IMG/VR virus record: IMGVR_UViG_3300032232_001415
Coordinates: 64,001 to 128,000 of that record
DNA: 64,000 bases
Strand: one strand, 5' to 3'
From: a virus
Taxonomy: Duplodnaviria; Caudoviricetes
Shown piece after piece: positions 909-61,200 of this stretch (positions are counted from its first letter, which is position 1; every line of letters begins with the position of its first letter). Position numbers and translations under genes: made by a program. The notes under the pieces are model-generated. The model was not told the DNA's origin, ran no database searches, and saw only the letters and a list, made by a program, of their open reading frames with translations.

Positions 909-933
909 CTACATAAGCCAGTACAATAAACAT

Positions 934-29877: not shown

Positions 29878-32800
29878 TTAATTAATACTAATACCACCCT
29901 CAGTACTTGCTCTTAATTTATCAAACGCATTTTTAACACTATCTCTGACTAAATCTCCTATCGGTCCCTGTAATATATTCTGTAATGCTGATGCTCCATT
30001 AATAACTACTTCTACTTTATGAGTACCTTCTACATTAATTATTGGTGGTAAATTAATTTTTTGTAATTCTGATACAAAATTATTAAATTTATCAGTAAAT
30101 TGGCTCAATCCATCTAGTCCAATATTATTTGGTGCTCCATTATTAGATACACTATTTCCAGTAGTCGCACCACCAGAAACTATCTGTCTTTGATAGTCTT
30201 GTAACGCTTTAGTTGCTACTGTTATAGCATTATTAAAATCTCTAGAAGATTGTGTTAATGTTGTCAATATTTGACCAAATTCAGGAGAATCATTCTTTGT
30301 GGTATTCTGACTATTAGTTAAAGAAGGTGCCATATAACCAAGGTTAGCGTTATAATTTCTCATAGTGTTATATGTTAGTGGATCTCTATCCTGAATAGAA
30401 CTTAGTCTGCTTTGAAGACCACTTGGAAGAGAACGTCCGCTATCTTCATATTTTCTAGCAGAGACAAGGGATCTCATATCTTTATCTTCTCGATATGATC
30501 GTCTTCTTCTTTCCATTTCGTCTTGATATGCTTTTCTCTTTCTTTCTGCTTCTTCTTTGTATACTTCTCCGCCAGTAGCATACGCCCCAGCATTGATGCT
30601 CTTTAATAATGGTAGGTGTTTCTGAGTAGATTCTCTGTTTACTACAAATTCGCCCGGAGTTAACATGGCCGGAACAGTATCTGTGCCTTTTGGTTGATAT
30701 GGAACTAACGTTCCAGCAGAAGCATATACTATGCCTCCTCTCTTATATCCCATAGATTTCATTATTAGTTTTAAGGTATTATCATATAAATTATTAAAAT
30801 CATTAATATTTACTGTGTCGGCATCATTATACATTGCTCTGTCTATATCTTGTTGACTAGATCCTTTAATCAAATCCATAAATTGAACCATATTGGTAAA
30901 TACTTCCATACCGGGCATTTGTGTTTGATATAAGGTGTCGTGGCCAGTACGGCCTCTATGTAATTTTTGAACTAATGACCAACCAGCTTTGTTAGTTAAA
31001 TAATTATTCACATCAGCAGAAATATCAGTTTTCTTGCCGTATCCATCACTAATTTTTCCTTCATACATATCTTGCGTATATCCCATTCCTCCTCTAGTGC
31101 TAATGTCTTGTAGGGCGTGTGCCATTTCATGTTGAACTACTCCTTTTTGTATCTGTTCTTTGTTGAACATCATCCCATTATCTGTTTCTGGCAGACCCCT
31201 TTTTTCAGCACCAGCTCTGCCCATAAATCTTCCACGACCCCACTCAGACTCAGGAAATTCTTTTAAATCAACCCCATAATTTAATGATCCTCCAAAACCA
31301 ATACGGTTTTTATGCTTATTTTCTCCACTTTTAGACTTACTAATCAATTTTTTTGCACCCTCTGGGCTACTAGTATATGGTAGTAGCTTTTGAATGAATT
31401 CTTCTCTCGCAGCTATCATCGTATCAAAATCCGTTACGTTTATTTTAGCATATTGTCCTGCTCCCGCGAAGGTTGATTCCTGTCGATTCGGTCTAGGAGG
31501 CGGAGTATTAACAGCAGGATCACGAGGCCCCATTGTTTCGTGGGGCAAGCTCTCTGTTTTTGGATTTAATCTTTTTACGCCAGCTTCAGGATCCAGAGAT
31601 CCAATTTCTGGATCCAATATATTTTGTTTAGGTCTTAGTGACTTATTTAGTATGTCTGGTAGTTTTCTATTTTGCGGATCTAACTCATTTGCTTGTAATA
31701 GTCCATCTTTGTTGATATCCCAAAATTTAAAAATAACAGAAAGTTCATCTTTGGTTAAATATCCATCTTTTAAGCGAGTTAGATTAGTATCACTATCAAT
31801 CATGAATCCCATAATAAAGTCGGTTTTATCATATCCTTTGAATTCCTCCTTCCTTCTTTGGGTCTGTGTTTGGGCAGACCTGAACACGTTATCAAAAGAT
31901 GCTTGAGTCTTTGACATCCCCTCAGGAGTATATAATTTTTCATCTCTTATTCTTTTTAATGCTTCAATATTGTTTGGAAGTTTTGCATATTCTCCCTTCC
32001 ATCTTCCATCATAACCGGATCCGCGGTCTTTGCCAAATAGGCCCTCGCCACCGCCATTTGGTTTTGGGCCCAAAATATTTACTTTTAACTCACTTATAGC
32101 TTCTCTTCTTTCAGCTATTTCTTTTTTTCTTAGCTCTTTCTCCATTCTTCGTTTTTCTATTCCTTCTCTTTTTGGTCTTTCTGCTTCCCATTTCGCGCGT
32201 TCTCTGATGTCTCTATCAATTTTTTCTCTAAGAGCCATATCATCAGACGAAAGTCCTCCATTTTGTAAATAATTAACCATTCCACCATATTGTTTTGACT
32301 GTGGTGTTAAATGAGGTAAAGGGGGAGGTAATTGTGGAGTATTTCTTCTTCTTGTTTTCTCGGCTTCGCTATCAAATTTATTATTTACCGGAATTTGACT
32401 ATACTGAAAACGCTTGTATTCTTCTATCATATCTAGAGCAAATTTAATTTGCTCATATTCTTCTTTGTCTATCGCAGCATCTTTGCGCTGTTTTTTACCT
32501 TCCAAATAACCAGATGCTCGTAATCTTTGCTGTAGTTCGGACATTGCTCGATTACCTGTAGGAGCTAATTCAGCATTTAATTGTTTTCTTAGTCTATCAA
32601 GCATTGCTGCTTTTTGTTTTTCTTCTTGTACTTTTTCTCCTTGTATTCTTCTGTCATTTAAAGCTTTAGCTCTGGGGCTTTTAAATGGAATATAAGATCC
32701 TTCTTGAGCATAAACAATACCACCCTTATATAATGACATATAATCTTCTGGAAGAGTTATTGGCTTTTCTAAAGTTTTCTGGACTCTTCTGGTAAGATCG

Positions 32801-35800
32801 AATTCTTCTTTATCTAAAGCTTCCATTCGTCGCTTCATATGAGGAGCATCTTTATCAACGTGTCCATTATCAATCATTCTTTGATACTCTGCTCTTCTAG
32901 CTTTATAAATTTCTCTTATTAAATCTAGTGGTCTATCATGAAATTTATCTTGTGAATCTCTGGTAGCAGCATATTCTCTACGTCCTGATGTCATTATGTC
33001 AGACAGTTGTCTACTAGCCAAACTAGTCTTTAAATCTGGAGTTAATTCATCAACAGACAATGTCCTTGATTTTTCGGCAACTTCTGGCGGGAATAAAAAT
33101 TCATGCTGTTTCATTCTGCTATGCTGGGCTAGTGGATCTTTTTTCATTGAAGCATGAGACAGTCTGTATCTTTCTGCTTCTTTTATGGGCATTTCTAACA
33201 TTCTTAGTTGTAAACTCAGCTTGTCTAAATCTGTTAAATCATCTGAATCTTGGGTTTGTGATCTTGATTGAGCATAAAATCTTAATGCTTTTGGAGCTTC
33301 ACTCTCATCCATTGGGAAGAACCATCTTCTTCTGTTCGCTAAAATACCTCCTGGTTGTTCTGATAATGTTTGACTGTACTCTGATGAGCCTTTTTTGTCG
33401 CTTGGATTAGACGCTTCAACTCTCAAGAATCTAACAACTTCATCCAGTTTTGTATGTTGACCAGCGTATGGATACATTTTTTCATATCCTGGCTTAACAC
33501 GCATATTAAGAGATCTAATTTGATCAGCAGTAGAGTATTGTATTGATGGCTCGTCTATATTAGACTGTCTTCTATTTCTTCCTATGGGGGATCCTTTTTG
33601 TCTAAGATTTGATCCAACGGAGGCTAATTGAAGCATATCTTCAGCAACTTGTAATCTTCCATGAAAAGATCCTAATTGTTGACTTTCGTGGAATGGACTA
33701 AGAACCCTGTTTGGTCCTTTACCCTGAGCATGTATCGATGGTATTCCTTGTTTATCTACTACTGTCTTTGTCATAGCATCATACCAACCATTATATTTTC
33801 CACTATTTTTTCCACTATCTAACCATGTTGTATAGTTGGGTGCGAAAGGTCTCTGGTCTTGTTTATTTATAGATGGCGATTCGGTTCCTTCTGTAATCTT
33901 AACATTTTCACTATGATAATATGGTTTTCCGCCTTTTTGTAAATAATTAACCATTCCGCCTTTCTTGAATCCATAAGCTTTCATAACTTTTTTTAACATT
34001 TCTTGAGCCAAAGCATTTTGTCCAAATTTTGGATGATCCATTTTTTCAATCAGGCTAGTAAATAATTCATTTGGCTTAGCCCAAATATCATCAGAACTAT
34101 AATCTTTTTGACCAGAATAAAGATCTGGCCAACCTTTTGGATCATATAGAAAATCTTTAATATCATTTTTTATGACGCCTAACTTTCCTGCTTTGTATTG
34201 TGTTAAAGAATCTGTGCTGCGAAAAGTATGAGCACCACTAGAATGTTGTATAGCATGACCCATCTCATGTTGAACCATAGCTTCTGTGCTATTTCTATCT
34301 TTAAAAGCAAGGTGTGTTCCCCTGGGATCTAAAGTATTTGTTGTAGCTTCACCCATCGCTGTAGGATGACCAATAGCACCTGGACCCCAAGATGTTGATC
34401 TAATTCCAAAGTCTTGTTTTCTAAGAGCTAGTAATCTAGCTACTCCTTTCGGACCACTAGTATATGGCATTAATCTTGAGACGAGATCATTAGCAGATGC
34501 ATGCATTTGATCAGAATTACTAACATCAATTAATTTTCTATTGCCATAAGTTTCGGTATTTTGAGGATCCTGATCATATTTTTGTTCAGAAGGTTGCATA
34601 TCGCCAGGAAGTTGCATACCGCCAGGAAGTTGCATACCGCCAGGAAGTTGACTATTACGACTACCGCCACCAACAGGTCGGTAGTTACCATTGGCTCCTG
34701 GAAGAGTAAACCCTCCATCTTGTAGATAAGCAACTAATCCTCCCAAACTCTTATTTTGCGGTTTCATACCAGCAGCAGCTCTGTCTTTATCATTTGCAAA
34801 ACGACCAAAAGATTTCTTATCAAGAAGCAATGGTCTACCATCTGGTCTAATAATTCTAATATCACCATCAGATGTTACACTATCAAAACGACCCATAATA
34901 GATTCTTCTTCCTTACCATCATTATTTAAGTCCCATTTTTTATCACCATACCAAACTCTTTCGCCAAAAGCCAAGTTCGGCATTTCTCCTCTTCCAACAG
35001 AGCCAGATAAATATGGATACTTTTCTGCTTGTTTTTGTTTCATATCTCTTCCAGCTTTGCCAGATAAATATGGATATTTATCATCAAAATTAGGAGCACT
35101 AACCGGTGGCTTCGGAGCAGGAGTTGGTGACGGTTTTGATGGAGCACTAACCGGTGGCTTCGGAGCAGGAGTTGGCGACGGTTTTGATGGAGCACTAACC
35201 GGTGGCTTCGGAGCAGGAGTTGGCGACGGTTTTGTGTTAGTGCCAGTTGTAGGCGTGGGCGACCCCCCAATACTGCCCCATTTTACAGTATCTCTGATCG
35301 TTAAATCATCCGGCCCTCTGCCAGTTTTGGATAAATCCACCGGCTGAGATCTTCTATCTTTATCTTGTTGTTCTTTGATAGGTTGCTCTTTTAAGAATTT
35401 ATTTCTGGCTTCTATTTGCTGTTTGAGCAACATTAATCTTTGCTTCAAACTTAAGTTTTCTGGATCCGGATAGCGACCAGACAATATTTCATCTAGGGTG
35501 GGACGTCTTCCTTTTAAGAAATCTCCATCTTTATCTCTTGGCATATTATCAGCAGAAGATTCTCCAAAAAATCTTCTTTTTGCATTAATTCTATCTGTCT
35601 GTGCTTTTCTATCTTTTGTATTCCATGGATTATATTCTCCTGGACGCAATGGTCTGTCTTTACCGACACCCTGAACTTCATCAAGAAGTGACGTTACATT
35701 TTTACGAGCATAGGACTCATCATCTTGATGCATCATAGGTAGCCTATCCCATGCTTGGGAATTCATTCTGTCTTTCATTATCTTAGCATATACTGTATCA

Positions 35801-38800
35801 ACACCAATATTATTACCTTTTTTATCTGTTTTAAATAAATCTTGTCCTAAAATAGAGCGGAATGTTTTTTCATACCATGTACTAACCACCGGTGCTGGGC
35901 CGTATGGTTTGGGACGAGGACCACCATACTTGTCCTCCAGATATCCTTGAGTAACAGTAGGCACCTTCAAACCCCATTGAGCATAAACTACTCCACCATT
36001 ATTCAAATGTTTAACATCTCCTCCCTTACTACTATTAATAGCTTTTAATAAAGGAAGATGTTGAGAGGTAGATCGCGCATTAACAACAAATTCTCCGGGT
36101 GTAAGCATCGCGGGAACAGTATCCGTTCCCTTAGGTTCAAAATTAATTAATTTACCCGAACTAGCGTATACTACTCCGCCACTGCTAAAACCACTACTAG
36201 CAGCAACTTTATCTAATGTCTTTTTAGTATCAGATGTTGTTCCATTTATATTTTTTAATAATGGATTAGCATAGTTTTGGTTTTTAATATTATTATCATA
36301 AATTTTACTACTAGTATCTTTACTAGATATACTGTTTATTCTAGTATCAGAAACTAGTTTCTTAACATCTTTTATTTCTTTCAAGGCATTTTGATTATTA
36401 ATATTTTGAGAAAAATCTGATCTAATTTTAGATGATGCTAATCCTCCATCGGCCAAATAATTTACTGATCCACCTTTGTTTTTATTAATAGACTGCAATA
36501 GTGGAAGATTTTCTTTGGTTGCTCGTGCATTAACTACAAATTCTCCAGGAGTAAGCATAGCAGGAACAGTATCCGTGCCTTTTGGTTCAAAATTAATTAA
36601 TCTACCAGAACTAGCATATATCACACCTCCATTACTAAAGTTACCAGCAACCATTCCAGTAACAGTATTTGGAAATAAGAATTGAGCAGTTTGTTGGCTT
36701 ACTCCAAGATTATTTAATCGGGCCGCTGAAGTATTTGCATCTTCTCCTCTTTTAATAAATCCTTTGTCAATCATTCTATTAATTAAATTCATTCTAAGAT
36801 TAGCTTGTTGTGCTCTGGTAAGTGAACTTCCTCTGGCTGCGGCTTTTTCAAAACTAGACATAGTAGCAAGAGACTTTACGGCCAATGCTTGTTGTTGTCT
36901 TTCTAATAATGGTCTTCTTTGAATAGCAATTGCTTTGTCTCTGGGATTAGCAAGCTGTGTTATTTCATCATTACTAAGTTTAAGTATCTTTTTATCTGTT
37001 GCGCTTATTGTTCCTTGCTGAGACATAACATCTGCCCAAGCGCTAAGCTGTCTATCATTAAATGGCATGAATATAGCTTGAGCAGTATCTGCACTCATAT
37101 TGTAGTTTTTTACAAAATATTCAATATTATCCTTAGCCAAACCACCAATATTCCATTTATCCTGTAATCTTCTTAATACATTTTTTCTCCATCCTTCTGC
37201 TCTTCTCGGATCAGTTGGAGGATTCATCCCTGATATACCGGCCACTAATTTAAATCTTTGTAAACTTCTTCTTTCAGCTTGAGAAGCTTCTCTTCTGTCT
37301 CTCATTCTTCTGGCAGACTCTGCTCGCGCTTCATCTTTTTTATCTGCTTCTATTTTAGCTTTTTCATCACTCTTAGCCTTATCATATTCGTCCCATTTTT
37401 GTTTTCTTTCTTCAGGACTAAGATCTTTAAATTTAGCATTAGTATCTACAATCTGAGTATTTACTTCATTTATTTTTCTACCATAATATGTTTCTATCTC
37501 TTTGATTTTTTTTGCATGGTCTGCTCTTTTACGTTCTAATATGATAGCATTATTTTCTTTAGAATATCTACCCTCAGGTTTAATATCTGATCCATATAAT
37601 TCATAATCTGCCATAGTAAGAACGGAACCTTGATCATCCATCTTTCTTTGTAAGCTTGCTCTAGCTTCAGTCATTTGTTGTTGCAGATATGCTCTTTGTC
37701 TTGCAAGCTTATCTACTTCTTCTATTTTTTCTGGTATTATTGGTTTATTTATATATTGATCAGCTTGTTTTGCTACAGCGGATGGAATTCTAACATTATT
37801 ATATGTAGAAACTAAAGAACTTCCCAGATTTAACAAATTTTGTCCAGCATTCTGTATTCCTTCAATTCCTTGATTAATATTTTGTTCTAATCCTGGTCTT
37901 TCATAAGTATTAAACATAAATGTTTCATTTGCTTTGTGAGCTCTTTCTTCTTCTTTTCTTTTTTGCTCACTTTTAATCTCTTGTTCTTTCTGAAGGACAA
38001 TATAATCATTAGTTAGTCTTTCTAACTTAGCATCTTCATCAGTATATCCTGATCCACCTAAATATGGATTTTGATGCACCGGTAATGATCCATTCATGAA
38101 AAGAGAATTTCTTTCTCCATTCTGATTATATATTTCTTCCTTAAAGTTTTTATCAAGATATTTATCAACATAGCCGATTGGATTGTTACTACTTAATGCT
38201 TGATCTATTGTGGATTGAGATAATCCTTGTTCTTGAGCAAATCTTGTAAAGCGGATTTCAAAAGTTAAGGTGTCTGTATCATACTTGCCTATTTCATTTC
38301 TTGCTTTTTCAATATCTCTTTTTACTCTTGCTCGTCTACGTGCCCATCTAATCGCGGTTGTTGTGAATCCTTGTGTCATTTGAAATTCGCGACCACTAGC
38401 TGTACCAATTTCAGCAGATGGTAGTCCATAATTTCTTCTTTCAGTTTCCTGTCTAAGTCTTTCGGCTTCCGCGCTAGCGGAGGCAGCGCCACCAATAGCT
38501 ACTGATGTTCTTCCTACTGCTGCTGGTATTCCTCTTCCTGGTATCCATGTGCTAGGACGAGAAATGCTCATATCTGTACCAAAAACATTTCCAACAATAT
38601 TGGTTCCAATATTTCCTTCTTCCATTTGTTGTCTGGTTTCTTCGTTTTTTGCTCTAATATATGCTGGAGTATCATATACTGCTGATCCTATTTCATAAGC
38701 TGACTGCACACCAATTTCCGTAAGAATCATAGCAGGACCTTGAGGGGCACGTAATGGTGCTGGAGCATTAGGCCATATCACAGATGGCCTAGTTACTGGC

Positions 38801-41800
38801 ATATTAGCAGCTGGTATTGCTGCTCTAAGTCCTTGTCTTCCTCCGCTTCTATAGGCAGTATTTGCCGCTTGTGCTGTTAAACCAGATGCTCTTGATGGTA
38901 AACCAGCTGACTGAGCTGCTGTGACACCAATATCAGAAATTGCACCAATTTCTTCAACAACAATTCCTGCGTTTTCACCAGCCACAGCAGATACTGCTGC
39001 ACCTCCAGCTGTTCTCAAAACATTTCTAGCAACATTACCACTAACTCCTGATGAAGTAGCAGCGCTAAAAGCAGCAGAACCAGCCCTTGCTGCTCTTTGT
39101 CTCGCTGTTGGTTTGGGTTTTCCTGGTTTTGGCTGAGCATCCATATCTGCAAGAGCATCAGCAGCAGCATCAGCTGCTGTTACTGGCTTACTGCTTCCTT
39201 TTTTCAGATAAACTGGTCCACCACTATTTTTATTAATAGCATTTAATAATGGAAGATTATTTTTTGTGGCTCTTGAATTAACAACAAATTCTCCGGGACT
39301 CAACATTGCGGGAACAGTATCAGTTCCTCGTGGTATAAATTTACCAGAACTAGCATATACCATACCGCCGCTAGCTTTATTCATTACATTTCCTGGTCTT
39401 TGTATTCCTAATCCAATTTCTCTTAATTGTTGAGTATTAAAATTAATAGTTGTTTCGCTAATAGCTTTGCGAATAGCCTCTCCAGCAGTTTGAATTAATG
39501 TTATTTGCTGCTCATTTAATGTTCCAGCCAGAGCCTGAGTAGCATCACTCAATGCTGTTTGTTGAACATCTATTAAAGCATTAAGTTGCTTTACTATAGG
39601 ATCTTCACCAGTATCTTTTTCTAAAAGACTCAATGCTTTTGTAACAAATGGATCATTTTGTAATCCATTATTTCTAGCCATACCTCTAATCATATCTGCT
39701 CTTAATTGATTACTTTCCTTGCCCTCAAGACCCATCATCTGAAGCATTTCATTAAATGTAGCAAAAGCTTGTTTATTTTCATTAGAATATGCTTCTTGAG
39801 CAGCAGTCATAGCTTCCTGTTGTGTTCCACCATCTTTAATAATCTTACTATAAGCTTCATTAGCAGCTGCTGATTGTTGAATAGTTCTTATTTGACCATT
39901 TAATGTATTAGTGACTAATTCATATGAATTCCTCATATCCATAAGTTCTTGAGGAGTTCCAGTAACCATTTTTTCCGCAAATCCGACACTAGCTTGTCTT
40001 ACTGTTTCTATTTTTGCAACTCTTTTTTGTATTTCATTCATAGCATCTTCAATACTAGATTGTATGTTAGATGCTATATTTTTTAATCCATCTTTTGTTT
40101 TAGTTATCTGATTATTTAAGTCAGCAATTTGTCTTATAAAAGATTGTAGTTGAGCTTGAACTCTAGGATCAGCTAAGTTTGCACCAGAAGATTCAAAGGA
40201 TCTTTTTTGTTCGCTAACTCTATTTAATTCTTGAGAAGCTATTTTATATGCTGCCATTAAATCAGTTGTATTTAAAGATCCTGTTTTAACACCAGCTTTA
40301 ATTTCTGCTGCCTGAACTCTTGCTGATCCCCTTTCGCTTACTCCTACTTCTTTACCTAGTAATTCTTTTTGACGAATATCTATATTTTTTTGATTGACTA
40401 TATTCTCTGCATATAAATTATTAATTTCGCTTTGTAAAGCTATTGATTTTTCAATTGCGTTAGCATAAATATTTAATCCTTCTTCTACTGCTGTTATGAT
40501 CTTAGTAGTAGATTCCATTAATTGTTTATTAGCTTCTGTTAAATCATTTAGTCCAGTTAACTCATTAATAAACGCATCTAAGTCGAATTCTCCGCCCTCT
40601 TGTTTTTTAGCTCGTTGAGCATCAATAGCTGATGCTATTTGTTTACGCAGATTATCTGTTAATCTATTATCTCCAAAAGATTTAATAAGCTTATCAGTTA
40701 ATGCTCTTTGAATATTTTCAGCAGCTAATTCTGGATCAGTTCCTGCCTGTTGGGCCTGAGCGGCCATACTAGACGCTATGGTTCTAGCATCTCCACCAAA
40801 GGATGCTAATTGTTCAACAAATTTAGCATCAGAACCAAAGAAGCCACTAACTTGACGCATAGCCCCAGATTGTTGATTAGAACTATATGCATTAGGATTG
40901 CTAATTATATTTTTAGCATTGAACGATGTTTTTAAAGAAACCGTTCCATTAGCGATATCTTCTAATCTTGAACTAACATTTTGCAAAGAAACAGAAGTTT
41001 TTGCAACAGCAGAGTCCATATTTGCAAATGTACGACTAATAGAAACGGTTGACATATTAATAGCTTTTGCTAGCTTTGATGAAGCTTTAGCTCTTTCAGC
41101 ATCTGCTGCTGCTATTTGTAGTCCCGCCGTTTCTTGCTTAAAGTATGTTTCTATAAGTGCTTTTTGTTCATTTCTGATTTCTTCCTTTGTAGCATCATCA
41201 GTATATTTATCTGCTAATGCTCTTTCTAGTTTAGCATTTTTTGCCTGAAATTCAGCACTACCTTCTGCTATCTGTTTTTTAACCGCATCTTGATTTGGAC
41301 CTAAAGAACCCATGGCTGCTCCAAACCCTTTTCCGCTATATGCTGTAACTTGGTTACTCAATAATTTAATTGCAGCATCTGCACCCGCCCTATTTGTTGC
41401 TGCTCTTTCTTGACCAAGTTCAGTATCATTTTGTTTTGTAGTATTAAACATATATCCGGCAGTTATATAATTACCGAATTTTTGCAATACTCCTGGTTGT
41501 TTAAGTTGATCATTTTTAGTTTGAATTTTACCTTCTTCTTCTGATATTGTTTTTATTCCTTGTAATACAGAGTTAGTTGCTGCTGTATCTTTTGCATTTC
41601 TTGATAGTCTTTCAAAATTTTTGTCAATACCAGCACTAGTATTTTCTATTTTCTTTTCACTTAATTCTTTTTCTGCTTGAGCTACTCCTTTATTATATCC
41701 TTCAACAGCTAAAACTGTTCCTGCTATAGCTCCAACTAAAGCACCGTATGGACCAAATTGAGAACCTATGGAAACTGCTGTACCAAAAGCTGTTCCGCCA

Positions 41801-44800
41801 GCAGCAACTCCGGCGCCCTTTGCTCCTCCTATTGATGATCCAATATTTTCAGCAGCCATCGGAATAGCAAATGCTGCTGCTAGTCCTTTATTTTGCCAAC
41901 TTGAAGTACTGTTTCTTCTAGCTTCTATTTGATCTTCGGTTAAAACTTTACCAGTTAATGTTGTTTTGCCAGTTACAAATCCTTTAACATTCTTTAGCAT
42001 TCCTCCTGTTGTGCTAGCGGTTACCGAAGCGGCCTTGGATATTTGTTGGAAAAATCCAGCAGACTGCTTAGCGCTATTAGTCATGCTATTCACTATTTGA
42101 TCTAAACGCGCCTGAGACATAGTAGAAGAAGATCTATTAATAAAAGGCGGAGGAGCAGCAATCTGACTTCCCCTAACTCGTCCTTCTGCTGGACCAAACA
42201 ATGATTCATATTGATAAGTATATCCTATACCCCTATTTGGAGCAGAGGCTTCAAAAGCTTCTTGGCTGCCTCTAGTACCAACTTTTGTTGTATCTGCTCC
42301 TGGTCCTGTGATTCTACGATTACCTTTTACTCTGCCTCGTTCGTCAACCTCAAATCCTCCAACAACATCTCCTCTGGAGGCTGCTCTTCTTTCTAGTCTT
42401 GCTTGTTCTATATCTGCTCTGTTTACAGGTATGGCAGTAGAAGCTTTTTGTTCATCAGTTAATCTACTACCGCTAGAAGTTTTCAATTGTTGAGGAACCA
42501 TAGACGTTGGTCCCTTAGGAGGACCTTGTATACTATCTGTAACTTCTTTTCTAGCCTTATCCAAAGCTTCTCCAAGACTCATTCCTCCCTTAATTAATTG
42601 TGCCGCAAGTTTTTTAGCCTGTTGCTCAAGACCCATATCATCCAAACTTTTTGTAAGTCCTCCATCAACAAATTTTTGCACAGTACCGACACTTCCACCC
42701 TTATTAAATCCTAGTATTTTATCAGCACGATTTAATTTATTTAATCTTGGTAATCCTATACTTTGTGCCGCTCTTTTATTAATAACAAATTCACCAGGAG
42801 TTAAAAGAGCAGCAACAGTATCTTCTGAATGTCCTCCACTAGCAAATTTTCTAAACATTCCAGAATAACCCACTTTGCCGCCAGTATGAAATTTTGCCAC
42901 TTCTTTTGACTCTGGAATTCCATATTGTTGTCTAAAATATCTTTGAAATTCTTTTATGGCTTTTCCTCTGCTTCCACTATCAATGGTTCTTTTAACTTCT
43001 GTGGGGATATTAGGATCAATACCAAATATTTTTGCTGCTTTAGGCCCAATACCCATTGGGAAGTCAATTGGGCGAGTTCTTAAAGCATCATCTAATATTG
43101 TAGCATCTGCTGATCCAAAAATTTGCTCTAATAAAGCACCCTCAATATTACCTTGTCCTAATGTTTCTCGTTGTTTTTTTGTTAATTTCTTGGGAGATAT
43201 TCCCAGAAGTTTGGATGCTCCTCCTACAATTTCTTCTGTTTTTCCACTAAGATAATCAATTACATTTTGATATTGATTTGGTAAGCCTCTTTGAACTATT
43301 GAAGCATCTATTGATCTTTCTTGTCCAGATGAATCGACTCCAAGATTCCAAGTTTCTGGCCCTAATAGTCCAGTATAACCCAACGGATTTAATCCAACTA
43401 GCCCCAACTGCTGAGACGATAACACCGCACTAGTAGTATCTGATAATGCTTGTGCTGATTTGGTTCCTTGAGATTCATTAAATTTTTGTATTAAGTAATC
43501 TCTAGTAGCAAAATAATATGCTTGTTTTTCGGGATTAGTTGCTGGAGGTAAGCTGGTTTGCCAATATTTTAATTTACCTCCATCAGCAGTGTCTCTTACT
43601 GTTTTTCCTCCGAATGGACCAAAACTTGGATCACTTGGTAGTCTTTCAGATCCAAATCTTTTTAATATCTCTGTTCCTTGTGTTGGTAATATTCCAGAGG
43701 ATTTCTTGACCTGGGTGGCCTTTTCTACATTTTGTAGTATTGCCGCTTCTAGTCCAGAAGGCATCGCTGTTGAAACTCCTCCAAATTCACCACTCATCTG
43801 TTCTGATAATTGCGATGCTATAGCTTCCTTTGTTATATCTGATGGCTGTGCGGATACTGAGGATTTTCTTGACGGATCTATTCCATAAGTTTCTGGATAT
43901 TTAGCAGATAATGCTCTGATTATATTATGCGCCCTATATCCAAATGCTCCTTTAGACACTCTGTCTCTTTTATCTCTTATCTGTTTAACTTGATCAGCTA
44001 TTTCTGGATAATTCTTCTTTAAATCAGCACTAACATTACCATAAGGACCACCAGGAGCATTTGATAATATTTCTGTAACCTCAGTATTGGATCGTGCTTT
44101 ATCTTGATCAACAAATTTTTGTATTTCTTCAATTAGCATAGGAACCATAGTGCTACGATTACGTAATTGTGCTCTATTGCCCATTAATACTGATGCTATA
44201 TCAGGATGCAAGAGGCTAGTTAGTGTTTTATCATCGCCATGAAATAACGCATCTCTAACTTTGGTAGCGCTAATATCTTCTATTCTAGGAATGTCTTTAA
44301 CATCTATTCCTGCTCTTTGGTATTTACCTAATGTTTTATCATCTTTACCAGAAGTTATTGCCATAGCTCCTTTTAGTTTAGCGAATTTTCTTCTATCTCC
44401 ACTACCAGCAACTTCCATAAATTTTGATAAACCGCCAGCAGGCTGACCTTGAGTGCTAATCATAGCATTTCCAAAATTAATTTGGCTGAATAAAGCTCTT
44501 AAATCTTCTTGAAAAATACCATATCGTGCAGCATGATCTATTCCTTCTTTACCAACAACCATTGGAAGATCCGTGGCAACATTAACAACAATATCTTCTA
44601 AAGAAGCGTTTGGATTTTTAGCTAACATATTCTCTAATAAGGTATCTAATGCTCCTCTGTGTCCTCTGGTTGGAGGAGCAAAACCGCCCATATAAAATCC
44701 ACCAGCCTGAACCATTTCCGGTAATTCACTATCTTTTTTACGTCTTAAACCAAAACTATCTTTTTTTCTTCCAAGAACAGTGGCTTTTTTACCCAATTCG

Positions 44801-47800
44801 TCTCGTAGTATAGTTTCTTCCAAAGCAAAATCAGCGTCAGCTCCTCTTGTGGTTCCTGGTTTACGACCATATAAGCCTTCTCCTGTAGTATCTCTACTAT
44901 CTCTATTTAATCTAATCTGATCTTGCTCACCTCTATTATTAGAACTTAATACATATGCTCTATCAACATCTTTTAAATAAGCATCTAGCTTAGACTGACT
45001 AGCTGTGGAAGTTAATACAATGACTTCATTAACTTTTTCTATATCTTCGGGCGTTAATATTTGAGAGCGAACTGTTTTTCTTAAAGTCGCATCATCAGTT
45101 GCTCCTTTGCCAGTTGCCAAACTACTTTTTCCACTTCCAGCAGCTCCAGCAATAGCTCTAAACTTAGATAATGATCCAGTTTTTCTGGCTTTAGCAGCTA
45201 ACTCTCCAAGCTTTGTTGTATAATCACTAACATCTGTTATTCCAAGTTTTTCCATTGCTTTATCAACAATACTAGCATTTGCAGGATCTCTTAAAACATC
45301 AGTATCAACTATCCCGATATTTCTTAATACCTGTCCTCCAGCACCATAAGCTTGTCTTTTAATACCAGCATTACTGAATAATTCATTTAGCGTAGAATCT
45401 AAAATTCCCTGCATATTAGAGTCTAGTTTAGGAGCGTTCTGAATAAGAGTAGTTAAAAATTCTTCTTTACCATAATCTTCTACTTTTCCTATCGTATCTT
45501 GTCTCTGTCCACCTTTTAACAGTATCTCATTAATTTTTGGATTGATTGGTCGATACTCTCTAGCATTTTTCTTTTGTCCAGACTCTACCCACATAGAGTA
45601 TGCTTCTTTAGATAGTTCAGGATTTGCGCCTCTTCCCCCGAAGTTCATAGTTTCTTGTCTCAAATTTTGTAAAACAGTATCAAGTAAACCATTCTTATAA
45701 GAGCGTCCATAAACAACATCAGCACTATTATAACTTCCACCCAATGCATCAAATGCGTCTGCAAGACCATCATTGTCTCCATTAAATAATTGAGACACTC
45801 TTTCTTTATATTTTGTAAAACTATCTTCTGATTGGGTTCGTAAAGAATTCAATAATTGATGTGTTAATTCATGATATAAAACATTTTTTGGTTGATTACG
45901 ATCAAAAGCATTACTAGCCATCGAAACAAATCCTCGACCTGTTGATTCTAAAATGCCCTTCTTTTGCTCCATAAGACCTTTACGAGCAACTGCTTTTTTG
46001 CTCATTATATCTGATACTTTCTTACCCAATGCCATTTTTTCATCCATAGATTTATTAAAAGCCACAGTATCATAACTGAATGATCCATCTTCATATGTTG
46101 TTACTGGTGTTTTTAAGATTTTTTTGGTTTCTTTTGTTTTTTCATCTAGTAGTTTTTGGTATCCAAATAAATCTTGTTCATCAGCTTGTGTGAATCCAAA
46201 AGGTTCTAATCCTTTATCGTCATATCCCTGAGCCCCAAAAGGATCTCTACTAAATTTTCCACGATATCCATAAGTTTGTAATTTACCACCAAAATCTATA
46301 GTTTGTGGTAAAACTTTACTTAAGTCTTCTTCTGGTAATCCTATAAATTTAGCAAAATCTGATAGATTACCCAATAATTCATTACGGCTAATTTTGGTAT
46401 TAAATAAACTTAAAAATCTTTTACGATCAAAAGGTTCGCTCTGGAATTTTTGTTGTACTTCTGCAGGATCGACCGTTATTCTTTCATTGGTAGGATAAGG
46501 ATCGAAAGCATTATTTACTCTTTCTAGATCTAGTTTTTTCTGCAATTCTTTAGCATAAGCATTAGTAATACGCTTAGGAAATTTTGTCTCTCCTGTTCCA
46601 AAGGGTATAGCTTCTGCTTTTCCTCCAGCCATAAATTTTTGAATCATTCCTCCAATATTTTTCTTTTGTATTTTTGAAGATCCAGCTGGAGAAAAGTCTT
46701 TAATTGTCTCTTCAACAGTTTTTCCAGGAAATCTTTTTTTATATTCTTCTTTTGTCATTGAGCTAGCAGCGCCACTACCATATGGTACTGCTAATCCAGA
46801 ACTCATTAATTTATTAGCTAATTCATTATCTTCTAATAAAATTCTACCATATTTTTCATTTTTTTTATTTCCTGATGGTCTCAATAATTTTAATATATCT
46901 TGATTAGATTTTGTTTTATAATGATCTGTAGCAACTTCTTTAGCTTTTAAGCCCAATGTTTTTTGCCAACTATTTTTTCTTCCTCCTTTATTTGTTACTT
47001 CAAAAGCATCAACTCCTAAGAGTCTTGTTCCTGTATCAAAAGGATCATCTGTTGGAGTTACATTGATATTCAATGTATCTCCATCAGTAACTCTATTTAA
47101 GTTATTGACAGAAACTATTCCTCCAATAGCATATTTTTTTCTTTTTCTTGATGCTCCAGACTTAATAGTGCCTCCAATTCCATATTTATTCATTCTATGT
47201 AAATTACTAGCCCCTATAGTCTGCACAGCCCTTTTGCGTATAACAAATTCTCCAGGCTCTAACATTGCTGGAACAGTATCTCCATCACCGCTACCAGGAA
47301 CAACTCCTCCTCTGGCAAATTTATGTATCATTCCACCACTATTTTTTTTTGTTGTTCTTAAACCTCCTGCAAAACCGGTTGCAAATTGACCTAAAGCACT
47401 TACTCCTCTAATAGCAGTAATAGCAGTTAGTGCTGGAATAACACCCTTAGCAGCATCTGCTATTCTTATAAGTCCACTAGTTAAATCAAGAGACATTTTA
47501 ATAAAGTTTTGGAATCCACTATCATTTCCAATTGATCTAATTAAAGCTGTAAACTCTTCTCTTACTTTTGTAAGCTGAACAGCAAATGCTTGTTGTGCTG
47601 TGGTAGCATCTCTTGCCAATGAACCTTGTCCTCTTTGAGCAACTACCAATGCTTGTTGTGCTGTTGCAAATTCTTGAATAAGTGGTATAACTTTACCAAT
47701 TTGTCGGAATCCACCAAGTTCTTCAACTATTCTACTAAATCTTAGATCTCTAGGATCTAATTGACTAAGACCAGCACTTAGTCTTTTAACAGCTTCATAT

Positions 47801-55005: not shown

Positions 55006-55727
55006 GATAGTTCTCCTTGTGGTAATATTAACTGACCGGGTTGATTAATACTATTAAAAAGTTTTATATCTTTATTATAATAGTTTTCTACTAAGTTTCT
55101 TTGATCTTGTGATAATGTTGGTTTGGTTCTTTTTGCCTTGTTAGCTACTAATGATTCATTTTCGTTTATTCCTATAAACTTCAAACAGTCACTTAAATTA
55201 TCAGGAAAGTTAAAGACATAAGTTTCTCTTTGAATATATTTATGCTGGTGAAAAAAATGTACATCGTCTCTCAGATATCCAAATCGTTTGAAATCTCTTA
55301 CTGGTAATCCTTGATCTATTCTGTTTTGTCTAGTTTCTAGCTTTTTAGCATTTATTTTTTCTAGATTAGCTAGTTGGTTTGATGCTTCAATATCTTCTCT
55401 TGTTCGAAGAAAAGCACTATCATCAACTAAAGAGTCTATTACTTTATCAATATCTTCTGATTTGATGTTTATTTGCTGACAAGCAGTAATAAATCGATCA
55501 ACTGGATTTCGTACCATCAGCACTATGGGCTTGTCTGGTGTTGTTGATCCTGGACACATCCAGTGCCATTGTTTTTGGTTTTCTGTTATTCCGTTGGGAA
55601 ACCTAGCATAGCTAATTTTTTGATGTTCTTTTGGATAAAACTCTTTAATGATCAATCGAGCCATAGTTGAAGAGCCAACTTTGGCATTGAGGGCGACACT
55701 ATAATTTGGAGTATTATAATAGTACAT
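54996..55727 (-). CDS. sulfotransferase family 2 protein
   Basis: 5'-PSB 'NAKVGSSTM', 3'-PB 'VRNPVDRFITA', 'HFFHQ', C-terminal 'YYNKDIKLF'. Confidence 0.8.
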   Translation of the reverse strand: MYYYNTPNYSVALNAKVGSSTMARLIIKEFYPKEHQKISYARFPNGITENQKQWHWMCPGSTTPDKPIVLMVRNPVDRFITACQQINIKSEDIDKVIDSLVDDSAFLRTREDIEASNQLANLEKINAKKLETRQNRIDQGLPVRDFKRFGYLRDDVHFFHQHKYIQRETYVFNFPDNLSDCLKFIGINENESLVANKAKRTKPTLSQDQRNLVENYYNKDIKLFNSINQPGQLILPQGELSCH

Positions 55728-58273
55728 TATGGATAAACTGCTAATTGTGAAGTTGGGGGGGTGAAATTAGTATTATATAACGAAGCTCCTCTTACTATTC
55801 TCAAATCGTCTATATATCCAAAAAATTCTTGGCCACCAGTAGCTCCACCAGCACCTATAACAACATTATCTGTATTTGTACTAATAATAAAATCTTCTAT
55901 AGTTTGAGAACCTTCTAGATTGCCATCTATAAATATTTTAAAGGTATCATATAATCGAGTAACTGCAACGTGATACCAAGTATTGGTCGATAAAGTACTA
56001 GTAGAATCTAAATTAATTCCCCAGCTACTTCCATCGTTTGTTGCTATTATATTTAGTTTGTTATCGTTACATTGAAAAATAAATCCTCCATAGGTTCCGG
56101 TATTTGCTCGTTTACTAAATATCACTCTTGCTCCAGTAACATTGCTAGGTCTTATCCAGCACTCTATTGTGAAATTACTATTAAGGAAATTAAAATTATC
56201 TTTTCCTGTGCTATAGCTAATATAGTCTCCTGTTCCGTCAAAATATATGCTTGCAGTACCATACTTATATTGTGTTGTACTAGTAATTGTGTTGCCATTT
56301 CGAGTTGCTGTTAATGCTTTATGCCCATCATCCGTAAATATGGTACCATTATTTGTTCCGTTGCCCTTTAATAATAGTATTGTGGTTCCCTGAGTTGCTG
56401 CTGTTGTGCTCGTAGTGGCTTCTGCTGATGGTACAACGAAGTCTTGATAGTAAGCACATTTTCCTCTAACAAGTTTAAAATCATCAATATATGCTGAGGA
56501 CGCACTACTTGCCCAAAATCCATATGATCTTCCTAATCTTAACTTATATGGTCCTGCTGGAGTTGGTTGTTCAGCAACTCCGACTAAAATTCCATTAAAA
56601 TAAACTTTCTTATATTTAGAATCTTGAGCACAAACAACATGGTGCCATGTCCCGCTAGACACATTACAACTTGATGTTACAGCACCTGTTCCATTATTAT
56701 TAAAATGAATATCATTACTAGTGTAAAGATGAATATTTACTCCACTATTATTATCTACTCCTGTTGAGTTTGCAAGATAAACTATACCTTCATAAGCGGC
56801 AGTTGCTGTTGGCCTATATATCCAAAACTCTATGCTCCAATCCATATTAGATAAATCTGGAATTATATAAGACTCATTTCCTATTGAGCCACTATTTATA
56901 CTCAAAGAAGCACTGCCATATTTTTTAGTTGTGGTATTCAAACTAGGCGAACCAGTTTGTAATGTTATGCTTCTGGAGTTGCTACTTGAATCTGTGAATG
57001 TTGTACTTCCATTCGATCCATTTAAATTTAATAATAGTTCTACTATTGGAGATAATGATCCGAATACTGTATATCCTTTATTTGTTGCTATGGTGGGATC
57101 ATCAGCGTCTCCACCAGTATTATCACTAACTTCTATACTTCCGTTTCCATTTAACAAATCGGTATATAGCTGATTTAAATCAGACGAGCTTAGATTATTA
57201 GAACTGATATTTAGTGAATATTTTATCTCTGGAGAGCCGACCACTGTCTGTCTCCACCAAAAACTGCTCGCAGTATAATAATAAGTGTAGCCCTGTGGAG
57301 CTACTGAGGGACTAGTTAAAAACTTTGAATAAAAAGGTCGTACTGAAGTTAAATTATTATTTGAAACGTCAGTATTGTAAAAATATCCATCTAAAGATCC
57401 GTTTGATGACGATGGATAAATTGTTATACTTTGATTTCCTCCAATTGCTGCTTTAGCAAAATTAGCTCCACTAACATAAGTAGTTTTTGTTCCATCCCAC
57501 CAGTTTACAGTATAGTATCCGCTACTGGTAGAAACATATCCAGTTATATCTCCACTACTTTTGGTGCTAGTCATAACAATATGATTATATAGTTTTGGTG
57601 CTATTGTGGCATTTTTACTAGGTGGACTACTTGGTATAACAAATGATTGCCCAGTATAAAGAGCAACCCCTTTAATTATTCTGAGACTATCTATATGTCC
57701 ATTCAATCCCTCGGCAGTAGAATGGGACGATGCTCCAATAGTTACATTTCGAGTTGCCCCTAAATCGGCGTTGTTATAGCCTGACAAAATTTTAAATCCA
57801 TTAACGTATATAGAAAAATTTCCATTTTCTCTAGTAATAGCAATATGATTCCATTGTGATATTGGACAATTAGTAGAAGAATACCAATTATACGATGTCC
57901 CATTGATATAAAAAGAATTAGTAGACGCTTGATGTCTAAACAAAATACCATTAGTATAGTCTCCAATACTAATAATTCCTTGAGTACTTCCTTCACTTAT
58001 CATATACAGCCAAAATTCTATTGTAAATGATCCTGTTCCAAATCCAAAAGCAGCGTTGGTAGAGTACTGAACATAGTCTCCAGACGAATCAAAGTATCCG
58101 CTGCTATTATCAAACTTACTTTGTGCTGTGCTTATTTTAGCAGTTCCATAAACTGTTCCAGTATGATTATAAATACTACTATCAGTAAAAGTAGTACTGT
58201 TATTGGCCCCATCAAAATTTAATAATAAACTTGCTGGATAAGTTCGTGGTATTGATGCTAATAAACTACTCAT
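55727..58273 (-). CDS. virion protein with three LamG/ConA-like lectin domains
   Basis: Three repeats of 'LLL..G.N.ST.FTD.S...FTIE(F/C)W...W(N/H/Y)H(I/V)A...G(Y/H)ID.LRI..G'. Confidence 0.85.
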   Translation of the reverse strand: MSSLLASIPRTYPASLLLNFDGANNSTTFTDSSIYNHTGTVYGTAKISTAQSKFDNSSGYFDSSGDYVQYSTNAAFGFGTGSFTIEFWLYMISEGSTQGIISIGDYTNGILFRHQASTNSFYINGTSYNWYSSTNCPISQWNHIAITRENGNFSIYVNGFKILSGYNNADLGATRNVTIGASSHSTAEGLNGHIDSLRIIKGVALYTGQSFVIPSSPPSKNATIAPKLYNHIVMTSTKSSGDITGYVSTSSGYYTVNWWDGTKTTYVSGANFAKAAIGGNQSITIYPSSSNGSLDGYFYNTDVSNNNLTSVRPFYSKFLTSPSVAPQGYTYYYTASSFWWRQTVVGSPEIKYSLNISSNNLSSSDLNQLYTDLLNGNGSIEVSDNTGGDADDPTIATNKGYTVFGSLSPIVELLLNLNGSNGSTTFTDSSSNSRSITLQTGSPSLNTTTKKYGSASLSINSGSIGNESYIIPDLSNMDWSIEFWIYRPTATAAYEGIVYLANSTGVDNNSGVNIHLYTSNDIHFNNNGTGAVTSSCNVSSGTWHHVVCAQDSKYKKVYFNGILVGVAEQPTPAGPYKLRLGRSYGFWASSASSAYIDDFKLVRGKCAYYQDFVVPSAEATTSTTAATQGTTILLLKGNGTNNGTIFTDDGHKALTATRNGNTITSTTQYKYGTASIYFDGTGDYISYSTGKDNFNFLNSNFTIECWIRPSNVTGARVIFSKRANTGTYGGFIFQCNDNKLNIIATNDGSSWGINLDSTSTLSTNTWYHVAVTRLYDTFKIFIDGNLEGSQTIEDFIISTNTDNVVIGAGGATGGQEFFGYIDDLRIVRGASLYNTNFTPPTSQLAVYP

Positions 58274-58274
58274 G

Positions 58275-61200
58275 TTAGTTGGTCTTATTGCCTATATAGT
58301 GTCCTTGCATGGTTCCGCTTCCAACTGATCGTAACAGCACAATATGTCTGCCGCTTGGTAACGGAGAATCTGGTTGTCGGTACCAATCGTTAACTATGGT
58401 CCAAGTAATGCTAGTATTTCCACTAGAGAAAATATTAAGCGTGGTTTCTCTTGCTACAGAACTGCTTGAAGGCCAACCAGTTCCTGTTGTAAATGTTGTG
58501 GCAACACCATTTAGTGTTAAAGTCTGGATTTGACGATCTTGACCACAATTAATAGCGTTACTTCCACTTATAGTTCCAAGATTAAATACTGAAGTATCAT
58601 ATAAACCAACGCCAGACCCATTCAGATTTAATGATCCGCTAACACTTAAACCACTAGCTATTATTCCACTACCAATAACGTGAAGTTGAGATGTTGGAGA
58701 TGTTGTTCCTATACCAACAGCCCCAGTATAACCATTAATTACTGTTCTTGGCGTCCATGTAGCCCCAGAGTGATATCCAAATTGAACAAACCTAAAGGTG
58801 CTACCGTCATTGGCGGTAGAGATTCCTAAATGATTACCTTCTTTACCAATAGTATAATCATTAGCGGTTCCTCCTCCTCTATTAAATTGTAATTTATTTC
58901 CTATACTTGTTGCTGTATCACTCAATCTTATATTTCCATCAACTGTTAATTTTTCTGGAGGAGTTGTTGCTTGAACTCCCGTACCAATACCAACATTCCC
59001 ATTAGTTCTATCCATTGTCATTACAGATGACCAAGAAGATGCCCCACCTTTTCGTTGTATATTTAGAAAACCATCAGTTCCTCTGTCAAAAAATCCCCAT
59101 CCGTATGTGGATGCTGAAATATCCCCATTAAGACTAGAGAAAAATGGAATAGTATCACTATTTCCAACACCTAAATAAGTTCTAGTCACTGTAGGCCCAG
59201 AAATCATTAATGAAGCATTATTTGTAACACTGCCACTAACATGTAATACTGATAATGGAGATGTAACAGCTGATGTTGGACTAATACTTAGTCTTCCATC
59301 AACCAACCCTGTTCCAAGAACGTGTAGTCTACCACTTGGAGAAGCTGTTCCTATGCCAACATTAGTACCATTATCAAAAATGATTCCACTACTAACACTA
59401 TTAGATCCGCTCCATCGTGTTAAATATCCACTAGTTCCAATTCCAGTAATAGGATTAGTTAGAGCTAATTGATAAGGAGTTAACAGTCCACTGACACTAC
59501 TATTAAAATTACTAATATCTGATGAAGTATGACTATGTCCGCTAATACTAACACCAGTACCATTAACTTGTAAAGATTGAGTAAAATTTCCACTATTGGC
59601 TGTTATCAGTCCGCTAACTTGTAACGTGCTAGATGGACTACTTGTTCCAATACCTACTCTTCCAACACTATCTATTCGTAATCTTTCAACGCCGCTAGTG
59701 CTAATACCAAAAGTATTTGCTGATGGGCTAAACATTCCAGTATCAGGATCGTTAACAAACTCAAAAGAAGGTAAGGCGGCAGTTCCTGATCCACCGATGA
59801 ACGATCCTGTTGCTAAAATGTCTCCAGCAACGTGAAGTTTACTAGACGGAGAACTTGTTCCTATTCCTACATTACCAACGTCTGTTATTCTTACTCTTTC
59901 TTGTAAACTTGATCCACCGTTGGTATGAAAAGCCAACATGCCTTCAGTTGGACTGCCCTCGGTAGAAACATCTATTTGTGCTATAACACTATTTATATCG
60001 TTAATAGTATTATACCATGTTATTGGTGCTATATTATTAGATGCATCAGGAATAGCAAATGTATGCCTTATAGAACCATTAATATTTATATTTCCAACAA
60101 CATCCAAAGCTTCTGATGGAGTTGCTGTTCCTATTCCAACGGTAGCATTACCATTAGCATTACTATTAACTATTAAAGTATTCTCTATTATAGCGCCATA
60201 ATCTCCTAATAGTTGACACGCACTACCTCCATTTCCTCCTCCGTTGTTAACAACCAATCCATTGGTATCCATAACAACAGCATTGCCAGGAGTGTCTACT
60301 TTTTCTCCCACTCCAAGAGTATTAAATATAGCAGACCCATTATTGATCCATGTGTAATCAAATCCATTATCTATTGGACCAATTTGTAAAGCATTATGAA
60401 TCCATGCTACTGAATTAATAGATAGATCAGCCTCACCACCAGCTGACAAATTATTAAAAGCATAATTAGTGGTTCCTATTCCAACATTTCCAACATTATT
60501 TATTCGTAATCTTTCAACTCCGCTAGTACTAATACCTAAAGTATTTGCTGCTGGAGAGAATAAACCAGTATCTGGATCTCCAGTAAATTCAAAGGATGGA
60601 TTACCAGCAGTACCAGATCCGGCTATGAAAGATCCTGTTGCCAAAACGTCTCCAGCAACATGAAGCTTAGATATTGGGTTGACTATACCTATTCCTATAT
60701 TACTTCCACTCTGATAAATATTACTATTTATTAATCCACTAGTACTATTCCATTGTGGTAAATATCCTGATGTTGAAGCTCCAGTACCAGTACCAGTAAC
60801 AGGATTTGTTAATAAAGCTTGTTTATTATTAAAAGTACTCCAGTCGGTGCTGCTCAAGACTCCCCTATTAGAAGCTGATGCGGTTGGAATATTTAATGTA
60901 ATAACTGGAGTCGTAGTATTTGTCGCTACTGTGCTAGTAATATCAGTTCCAGTAGTGCCGACAGTTAAAGCCGCTACACTAGTAACAGTCCCAACATTAG
61001 TTGTATATCCACTCGGATTACTAGAGGGATAACCTCTAATATCGCCCAATAATTCAGCTGCTGTTCTTGAAGATATGGCCTGAGCGCTACCGCTAGGATT
61101 AGTTACCCATACTGGAAAATAAGTTCCAGAGACTAATCCATTAGGAGATCTTACAGAAATTCTGTCAGTAATTCTTAAAATATCTGTAGTAGTATCGTTG

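Follow-up and report, generated by a model that had tools for sequence, protein, structure and literature searches.

The window analysed here, a 64,000-nucleotide stretch of a caudoviricete genome (positions 64,001 to 128,000 of IMG/VR record IMGVR_UViG_3300032232_001415), encodes on its minus strand a giant tape measure protein (TMP) of 6,340 amino acids in which a module of ∼78 residues is repeated six times. The account that we favor, and consider moderately probable, is that the copies represent a genuine junction module of phage TMPs, ancient, under strong selection and uncatalogued, operating by the mechanism proposed below. We are confident that the module acts at junctions and boundaries, and we hold only tentatively, from comparison with better-known tails, that the chain may actually be cleaved at some or all of the copies.

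Identity of the giant protein

The protein matches TIGR01760 (87.9 bits, E-value 6.4e-25, cut-off 28.8; residues 152–495), PF10145 (83.9 bits, E-value 1.8e-23, cut-off 33.2) and at least five TMP families of the PHROG collection, phrog_28 among them, and by these matches it is a TP901-type TMP. When 50,697 cultured-phage records were searched with the TMP gene (megablast) and with the helical body of the protein (tblastn), no match was found outside the short module; judged by these searches, the family of giant TMPs is known from metagenomes only.

The 6,340 residues include no cysteine, whereas the other 27 open reading frames (ORFs) of the window average 1.39 per cent cysteine (Poisson P-value ∼6e-39). 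Among 205 relatives longer than 3,000 amino acids, 182 are also cysteine-free, enzyme-like cargo included, and the maximum is 0.11 per cent. Such a composition fits a chain that is stored and extruded in extended form, without disulfide cross-links, and is consistent with one part of an earlier interpretation of this DNA (hereafter the sequence-only reading), which had suggested that the motif might serve as a threading signal. In sharp contrast to the TMP, a 2,629-amino-acid ORF (window positions 10245–18134, minus strand) has 78 cysteines (2.97 per cent), and the adjacent 168-amino-acid ORF (9738–10244, minus strand), which has a weak match to DUF6171, reaches 6.55 per cent.

Anatomy of the module

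A full module consists, in order, of a GG-flanked strand (GGhVYAxxG), a loop, the DTVPAMLTPGEFVV core (in detail, (G)TDTVPAMLTPGEFVV(N)), an amphipathic helix (ATxxNLPLLxxIN) that ends in an invariant Asn, and a second GG-flanked strand (GGxVxYLxxGG). Alignment of the six copies yields the ∼78-residue module with 17 invariant columns. The string PGEFV occurs six times in the protein, at residues 549, 2035, 3202, 4118, 4268, and 6082 (codon positions 47256, 42798, 39297, 36549, 36099, and 30657), and the low end of each occurrence lies within 5 nucleotides of the place where the sequence-only reading had located one of its six full motifs. The short linkers that it had reported likewise all appear in our listing of GG dipeptides: KYGIGG/KYAIGG, NIGGMIQKFMAGG, AYGAGG, FHTGG, FNKGGSV..FVDGG, NKGGSVNYLADGG, SKGG..NNGGVVYAQWG, SLGGLVAYLQDGG, FKKGGMVNYLQKGG, YKGGIVYAQEG, QYGGMVNYLQNGG, and YATGG. 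An isolated double-GG linker is a module flank standing alone, and the short linkers are otherwise the two flanks of a full module. Besides the six full modules, six isolated GG linkers are found at cassette joints (Table 1).

A regular expression for the short motif matches the TMP 15 times, whereas 1,000 shuffled sequences averaged 0.63 matches and never exceeded 5; given this excess, chance does not explain the repeated motif. GG dipeptides number 71, compared to 47.7 ± 6.4 in shuffles. Successive modules are irregularly spaced, at distances of 1486, 1170, 914, 150, and 1813 amino acids.

Selection on the peptide

Pairwise, the modules are 62–78 per cent identical as DNA. The 18-residue core is identical in modules 4, 5, and 6, yet 7–12 of its 18 codons differ, and across all modules 40 per cent of the codons for identical residues differ. 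This synonymous divergence implies selection on the peptide and means that the identical cores cannot stem from recent duplication or gene conversion; at the level of codons, it demonstrates that purifying selection acts on the module peptide. The sequence-only reading had described the motif as multiplied. Its repetition is borne out, with the qualification that the copies are old and synonymously diverged and that the first-position type is distinct from the internal and last ones.

Distribution and conservation of the module

A profile search of 1.84 billion representative sequences retrieved 17,997 proteins at an E-value of 1e-3 or lower and 918 at 1e-30 or lower, the top matches having 5–11 matched stretches each, and when the cargo part was used as the query, 105 relatives of 3,487–7,724 amino acids were retrieved from metagenomic contigs, many of them 100–250 kb long. 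All 230 proteins that we collected carry the module, in 1–10 copies (most commonly 4–5), and the more than 200 metagenomic giant TMPs have mostly 3–8. In the giant TMPs, the first module is usually located at residues ∼450–690, directly after the core, and the last one usually ∼70–310 residues from the C-terminus. Among 820 copies, D25, A29, L31, G34, E35, V37, and N54 are retained in at least 98 per cent. First-position modules form a distinct type (…PGEFVirKkAV..Ga.nLh.mNk), and internal and last modules share another.

Cultured phages carry a single module, and a few carry two. A query of the internal type matched 214 cultured-phage records at exactly one place each, always in an annotated TMP, with hosts that include Mycobacterium, Nodularia, Gordonia, Burkholderia, and several alphaproteobacteria. 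A first-position query matched 165 records at 255 places, among them a 766-amino-acid protein that T4-like cyanophages encode within their baseplate gene cluster; Gordonia phages and the Synechococcus MA01/S-H34 group have two places in each record. These counts, and the match to residues 724–801 of the lambda TMP gpH (see below), uphold the statement of the sequence-only reading that a single copy of such a motif is commonly found toward the C-terminus of TMPs. The module is covered by no Pfam or NCBIfam model (Pfam scanned to an E-value of 10).

Cassette boundaries and cargo

To map conservation along the TMP, we compared it by BLASTP with 229 relatives and took the ends of high-scoring segment pairs (HSPs) of at least 150 amino acids as homology breakpoints (n = 1,164). 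Conservation is stepped, and its steps fall at modules: the core (residues 1–560) is common to ∼200 relatives, the first cargo slot (600–2000) to 40–76, and the helical body (2350–3170) to 72–163, and residues 3250–4050 and 4350–6000 are nearly unique. Zones within 25 residues of a module or isolated linker make up 18 per cent of the protein length and contain 66 per cent of the HSP ends (circular-shift control: mean 0.18, P-value ∼0.0015), and 20 of the 26 clusters of HSP ends are located at motifs. With 40 random relatives as queries, 52 per cent of the ends fell in such zones, which cover 16 per cent of the length, and the enrichment was more than two-fold for 38 of the 40.

The only cargo with a solid family match is an SNase-like nuclease (phrog_452), which also matches PF00565 (E-value 0.0048) and NF047969, both below their cut-offs. 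Its domain begins four residues past the GG at 593–594 and ends before the linker at 748–760. Both the breakpoints and the position of this domain between GG motifs bear out the claim of the sequence-only reading that the motifs delimit cassettes: the module marks cassette boundaries. Pfam matches of the TMP to kinase/nucleotidyltransferase, zincin, and EF-hand families are all below curated cut-offs. The EF-hand matches (best E-value 0.0068) fall on a 'DINKDGLLQANELD' loop at residues ∼5720–5740 in the last variable slot (window positions 31700–31760, minus strand).

In relatives, the block of SNase, first zincin, and kinase/nucleotidyltransferase almost always follows module 1, and the second and third zincins are mostly in the last slot. 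We looked for relatives of the second zincin and SNase cassettes suitable for deeper alignments and found none that were usable. A search for natural gene fissions at modules yielded P0195, which starts at a contig edge, and P0226, which is split inside the helical body and not at a module; neither is informative. In one relative (L084:3-5197, on a JGI 3300033064 contig), the TMP frame is interrupted in the helical body, not at a module, by a stop and a 23-nucleotide gap, which may reflect either a genuine fission or an error in sequencing.

Two further features of the protein were observed. Near the start of its helical body is a Gly/Ala-rich hydrophobic segment (residues 2381–2400 and flanks; window positions 41700–41860, minus strand) that is possibly membrane-active, as in other TMPs. 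Three tandem 48-nucleotide repeats, 94–98 per cent identical (35093–35236, minus strand), encode the Pro/Ser/Thr-rich unit KPSPTPAPKPPVSAPS at residues ∼4555–4602, and close to them are 18-nucleotide repeats of PGGMQL units (34587–34650) and a duplicated 'EKYPYLSG' unit (34989–35082).

Homology to lambda gpH and likeness to other systems

A profile of 175 first-position modules matches residues 724–801 of lambda gpH (30.8 bits, E-value 1.4e-6, with Z = 177,635, the size of the PDB sequence set). Weaker agreement on the same region comes from hhalign (probability of 62 per cent) and pairwise BLASTP (E-value 1e-6). Against PDB, a small paralog profile gave a marginal match to gpH (8iyk_H, E-value 0.13), and an 84-sequence module profile gave no match at an E-value of 10 or lower. 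At the level of sequence profiles, these comparisons establish that the module is homologous to an element of lambda gpH. A look-up in ESM Atlas yielded clusters without names and, as a weak lead, PF09718. In gpH this C-terminal family ends at residue 701, upstream of the module, so that the module is uncatalogued in lambda as well.

In lambda, gpH is cut to gpH* (∼78 kDa) within a glycine-rich stretch upstream of the module, the exact site and the protease not having been determined (PMC12617516). From fragment masses of 78 and 14 kDa, we estimate that the cut lies near residues 705–722, give or take about 10 residues, immediately N-terminal to the module. Residues ∼690–817 are not resolved in maps of the tail (PMC10721106, PMC12617516). 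Both proteins have a hydrophobic stretch, a Gly-rich run, the module, and a C-terminal docking helix, a putative one in the giant TMP, in the same order (PDB 8IYK); in the giant TMP, the hydrophobic stretch and Gly-rich run precede module 1 only, and the internal modules are without such a stretch. By position, residues 6128–6340 of the giant TMP are a candidate tail-tip docking end, the role being suggested by residues 818–849 of gpH (PMC10721106). Unlike the giant TMP, the 853-residue gpH has one copy of the module and no cargo, and in that copy the invariant Asn and the DTVPAML portion of the core are missing.

Other systems resemble the giant TMP in part. The T5 TMP, pb2, is cleaved after R1127, giving pb2* and pb2C (PMC10038345); the single site separates a hydrophobic stretch from a C-terminal piece that bears an enzyme and remains in the tail, and the sequence after the cut (AEGGMMYPG...GEHGTEVV) resembles, by eye only, a GG flank followed by a GE..VV core. 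Thermus phage P23-45 has a 5,002-amino-acid TMP, gp96, fused to the virion RNA polymerase (PMC10770324); like the protein described here, it is a giant TMP, with a metallopeptidase and membrane segments, that delivers an active enzyme via an extremely long tail, but it belongs to a different TMP lineage. Phage polyvalent proteins (PMC5512222) combine many enzyme domains on one virion-delivered polypeptide, an arrangement that the giant TMP may share, frequently with zincin-like peptidases and with proposed processing. In the giant TMP, however, the array is organized by a TMP core and a repeated module, whereas the survey of polyvalent proteins has no occurrence of tape measure proteins, no mention of 'linker' or 'glycine', and no conserved inter-domain joint. 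Finally, mycobacteriophage TMPs can contain an inserted enzyme motif, that of a peptidoglycan hydrolase, and processing is suspected for TM4 gp17 (PMC1796659). Many of them, such as that of JAWS, have one module in mid-protein (residues ∼754–839 of 1,277), but they differ in having only one module, one small motif, and ordinary length.

Proposed mechanism and alternatives

In the account that we propose, ordinary TMPs carry the module once and giant, cysteine-free metagenomic TMPs repeat it, always with one copy after the TMP core and one ∼100–260 residues before the C-terminus, the copies and the isolated GG flanks fencing off slots that hold either the conserved helical body or variable enzyme-like cargo. 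The lambda module (residues ∼724–790) lies between the hydrophobic, glycine-rich zone of the cut and the C-terminal helix that docks at the tail tip. Apparently without a fold of its own, the module may serve as a joint that depends on a partner and that holds the oligomeric TMP chains in register where unlike segments meet, as long as the chains are stretched out within the tail lumen. Lambda gpH (gpH* and gpHC) and T5 pb2 (pb2* and pb2C) suggest by analogy that it may also mark a possible place for a cut by a protease that is presumably not encoded inside the TMP, and the resulting pieces would remain in the tail until infection, when they would leave it in order.

Structural models of the module are of low confidence. 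AlphaFold2, given an 84-sequence alignment, predicts one helix only, with a predicted local distance difference test (pLDDT) score of 60 and a predicted template modeling score of 0.26, and the models were therefore not used for fold searches. Prediction of the core unit, which the sequence-only reading had suggested, thus yields a helix but no autonomous fold, which fits an element that becomes ordered only with a partner. As for the double glycines, which that reading had taken for the candidate cleavage signal, both pairs are indeed conserved in ∼95 per cent of the 820 copies, but the most conserved part is the 13-residue core and not the GG pairs. The spacing from the helix to the second GG varies among these copies, with up to four gap-prone columns.

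Several observations weigh against the proposed mechanism. No TMP with several modules has been seen to be cleaved, and in 20 other ORFs of the window, PHROG and Pfam scans detected no prohead or other protease family and almost nothing else. Residues upstream of the first GG are loosely conserved (position −3 is basic in ∼39 per cent and hydrophobic in ∼32 per cent) and so define no clear protease site, and an invariant core within an ∼80-residue module exceeds what a cleavage site needs. Keeping the chains in register is a role that we infer, and AlphaFold2 predicts no pairing when modules 4 and 5 are modeled in their natural tandem (pLDDT 60). The module profile has no significant match in T5 pb2; the resemblance at its cut lacks statistical support, which makes T5 an analogy and not a homolog. 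P23-45 gp96, the only studied giant TMP that bears cargo, is full-size in virions by western blot (PMC10770324). Because gp96 has no match to the module profile, no GEFV-type core, and no HExxH motif, its uncut state bears only indirectly on cleavage at modules. Moreover, the order of cassettes in relatives is largely syntenic and not freely shuffled, which describes the architecture as a conserved scaffold with variable slots.

The alternatives differ mainly in what happens at the module. It may be purely structural, never cut, and bind at each copy a conserved partner (for example other TMP chains, the tube lumen, the hub, or a tail assembly chaperone), so that one chain is delivered with its cargo tethered. 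We judge this less likely than the mechanism proposed above, although a 13-residue invariant core followed by a helix is typical of a binding interface, the lack of an autonomous fold agrees with it, siphophages and T4-like cyanophages, whose hub and tube folds are shared, both have the module in TMP-like proteins, gp96 functions as an uncut fusion (PMC10770324), and no protease was found among the window ORFs. On the other hand, lambda cuts next to its own module, the lambda tail maps show no ordered symmetric contact in the module region (PMC10721106, PMC12617516), and periodic docking to tube rings is unlikely given the irregular spacing, and we rejected it. At the opposite extreme, the giant TMP may be a true tail-lumen polyprotein in which every module directs a cut, by itself or via a host protease or an as yet unrecognized phage protease, so that one gene would fill the tail with separate cysteine-free enzymes lined up in order (nuclease, kinase/nucleotidyltransferase, and peptidases) and injected ahead of the DNA; lambda gpH, with its conversion to gpH*, would then be the single-copy ancestral case. 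This we consider rather unlikely, and a little more so than uncut docking.

Where the protease would come from can be narrowed further. The sequence-only reading had the embedded HExxH zincins as candidates for cutting the polyprotein at GG modules. Three HExxH motifs are present here (residues 1010, 4878, and 5924), the motif is enriched in the family (0.68 per protein, compared to 0.005 expected), and self-processing has been proposed for the zincin-like peptidases of phage polyvalent proteins (PMC5512222). However, 109 of 206 giant relatives (53 per cent) have no HExxH and all of them have modules, which excludes embedded zincins as the general protease. The three zincin regions are covered by ∼40, 12–19, and 14–62 of the 229 relatives, none of them widespread, and Pfam gives a single sub-threshold zincin match. 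Self-processing by zincins, which may be mere cargo, is therefore very unlikely. Even less credible is self-cleavage of the module, for example by cyclization of the invariant Asn at the end of the helix with Asp or Glu as the base, as in capsid maturation or at pretoxin junctions. D25, E35, and N54 are each kept in ∼99 per cent of the 820 copies, a flexible Gly-rich segment follows N54, and neither the window, in which no external protease is evident, nor lambda, for which the gpH protease is not known (PMC12617516), offers an obvious enzyme; but no predicted fold unites the three residues (pLDDT 60), and lambda, which is known to be cut, has Met at the N54-aligned position of a profile–profile alignment and its cut maps upstream of the module, not after the helix. 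It is hardly credible that the motifs matter only as DNA, as micro-homology joints for cassette exchange that encode a functionless peptide. Breakpoints do sit at the motifs, and two short linkers share 91 per cent DNA identity over 33 nucleotides, but the modest DNA identity of the modules and the conservation of the peptide across very distant phages oppose this explanation, which the synonymous divergence already largely refutes.

Other resemblances were considered and dropped. C39 double-glycine leaders and sites of the Ub-like, JAB, or ULP kinds do not agree with the variable GG spacing, the loose upstream residues, and the lack of a corresponding peptidase family in the window. A likeness to adenain or PLpro sites, seen by eye, fails because the spacing is wrong or variable, and a resemblance between the core and the S24/S26 peptidase hairpin, also by eye, is accompanied neither by a Pfam match at an E-value of 10 or lower nor by a conserved Lys partner.

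Features of the giant gene and its surroundings

Table 1. Features of the giant TMP gene, with positions in the window and in the protein.
Feature	Residues	Window positions	Strand	Evidence or remark
Giant TMP ORF	1–6340	29878..48900	minus	6,340 amino acids, 19,023 nucleotides, uninterrupted
TP901-type TMP core	152–495	47416..48447	minus	TIGR01760, PF10145, phrog_28, and other TMP PHROGs
Hydrophobic stretch, then Gly-rich run to 523	486–504	47389..47445	minus	Directly upstream of module 1
Module 1, first-position (F) type, KYGIGG/KYAIGG flanks	517–600	47101..47352	minus	Paralog alignment; F-type profile
SNase-like nuclease cassette	∼598–745	46666..47109	minus	phrog_452, E-value 1.5e-7, residues 598–720; between GG motifs
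Isolated linker NIGGMIQKFMAGG	748–760	46621..46659	minus	Breakpoint cluster here
Short linker AYGAGG	1183–1190	45331..45354	minus	Breakpoint cluster at residue 1175
Module 2	2003–2085	42646..42894	minus	Paralog alignment
Helical body, between modules 2 and 3	2350–3169	39394..41853	minus	Opens with hydrophobic stretch, residues 2381–2400
Module 3	3170–3247	39160..39393	minus	Paralog alignment
Module 4	4086–4163	36412..36645	minus	Paralog alignment
Module 5	4236–4313	35962..36195	minus	Paralog alignment
Isolated linker SLGGLVAYLQDGG	4718–4730	34711..34749	minus	GG listing, regular expression
Isolated linker FKKGGMVNYLQKGG	4978–4991	33928..33969	minus	Breakpoint cluster at residue 4975
Isolated linker YKGGIVYAQEG	5391–5401	32698..32730	minus	GG listing, regular expression
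Isolated linker QYGGMVNYLQNGG	5537–5549	32254..32292	minus	91 per cent DNA identity over 33 nucleotides to linker at 33928–33960
Module 6, last-position type	6050–6127	30520..30753	minus	Paralog alignment; 213 residues before C-terminus
C-terminal region	6128–6340	29881..30519	minus	Partly conserved, covered by 34–78 of 229 relatives

On the strand of the TMP gene there are also large ORFs of 1454, 521, 1353, 547, and 2629 amino acids to one side. The immediate neighbors of the TMP gene have no family match in PHROG and Pfam scans. Farther along its other side, on the same strand (window positions 55727–63926, minus), an 848-amino-acid protein has three Laminin_G_3 (concanavalin-like) stretches (E-value 5.8e-56) and a 1,883-amino-acid protein has a BppL_N lower-baseplate motif; from these matches, the two are likely to be receptor-binding or fiber proteins. 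Two adjacent glycosyltransferase group 1 genes are located on the strand opposite the TMP (901–3719, plus), in a block of low GC content (25–29 per cent).

Significance

The module is among the best-conserved short elements of TMPs, present in ∼18,000 cluster representatives and lacking a Pfam or NCBIfam model. It links the half-century-old, still unmapped cut of lambda gpH to gpH* with the acceptance of inserted enzymes by TMPs, and it ties in a large uncultured family of cysteine-free TMPs of 3.5–7.9 thousand amino acids that apparently ferry enzyme cargo through the tail. Even if it is a joint only, the module is still the organizing unit of the modular evolution of TMPs and merits a family model. 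Should it prove to direct cleavage or an ordered release, the module would define a modular, slot-based delivery system, with a bearing on phage counter-defense and on engineered tail-like injection devices.

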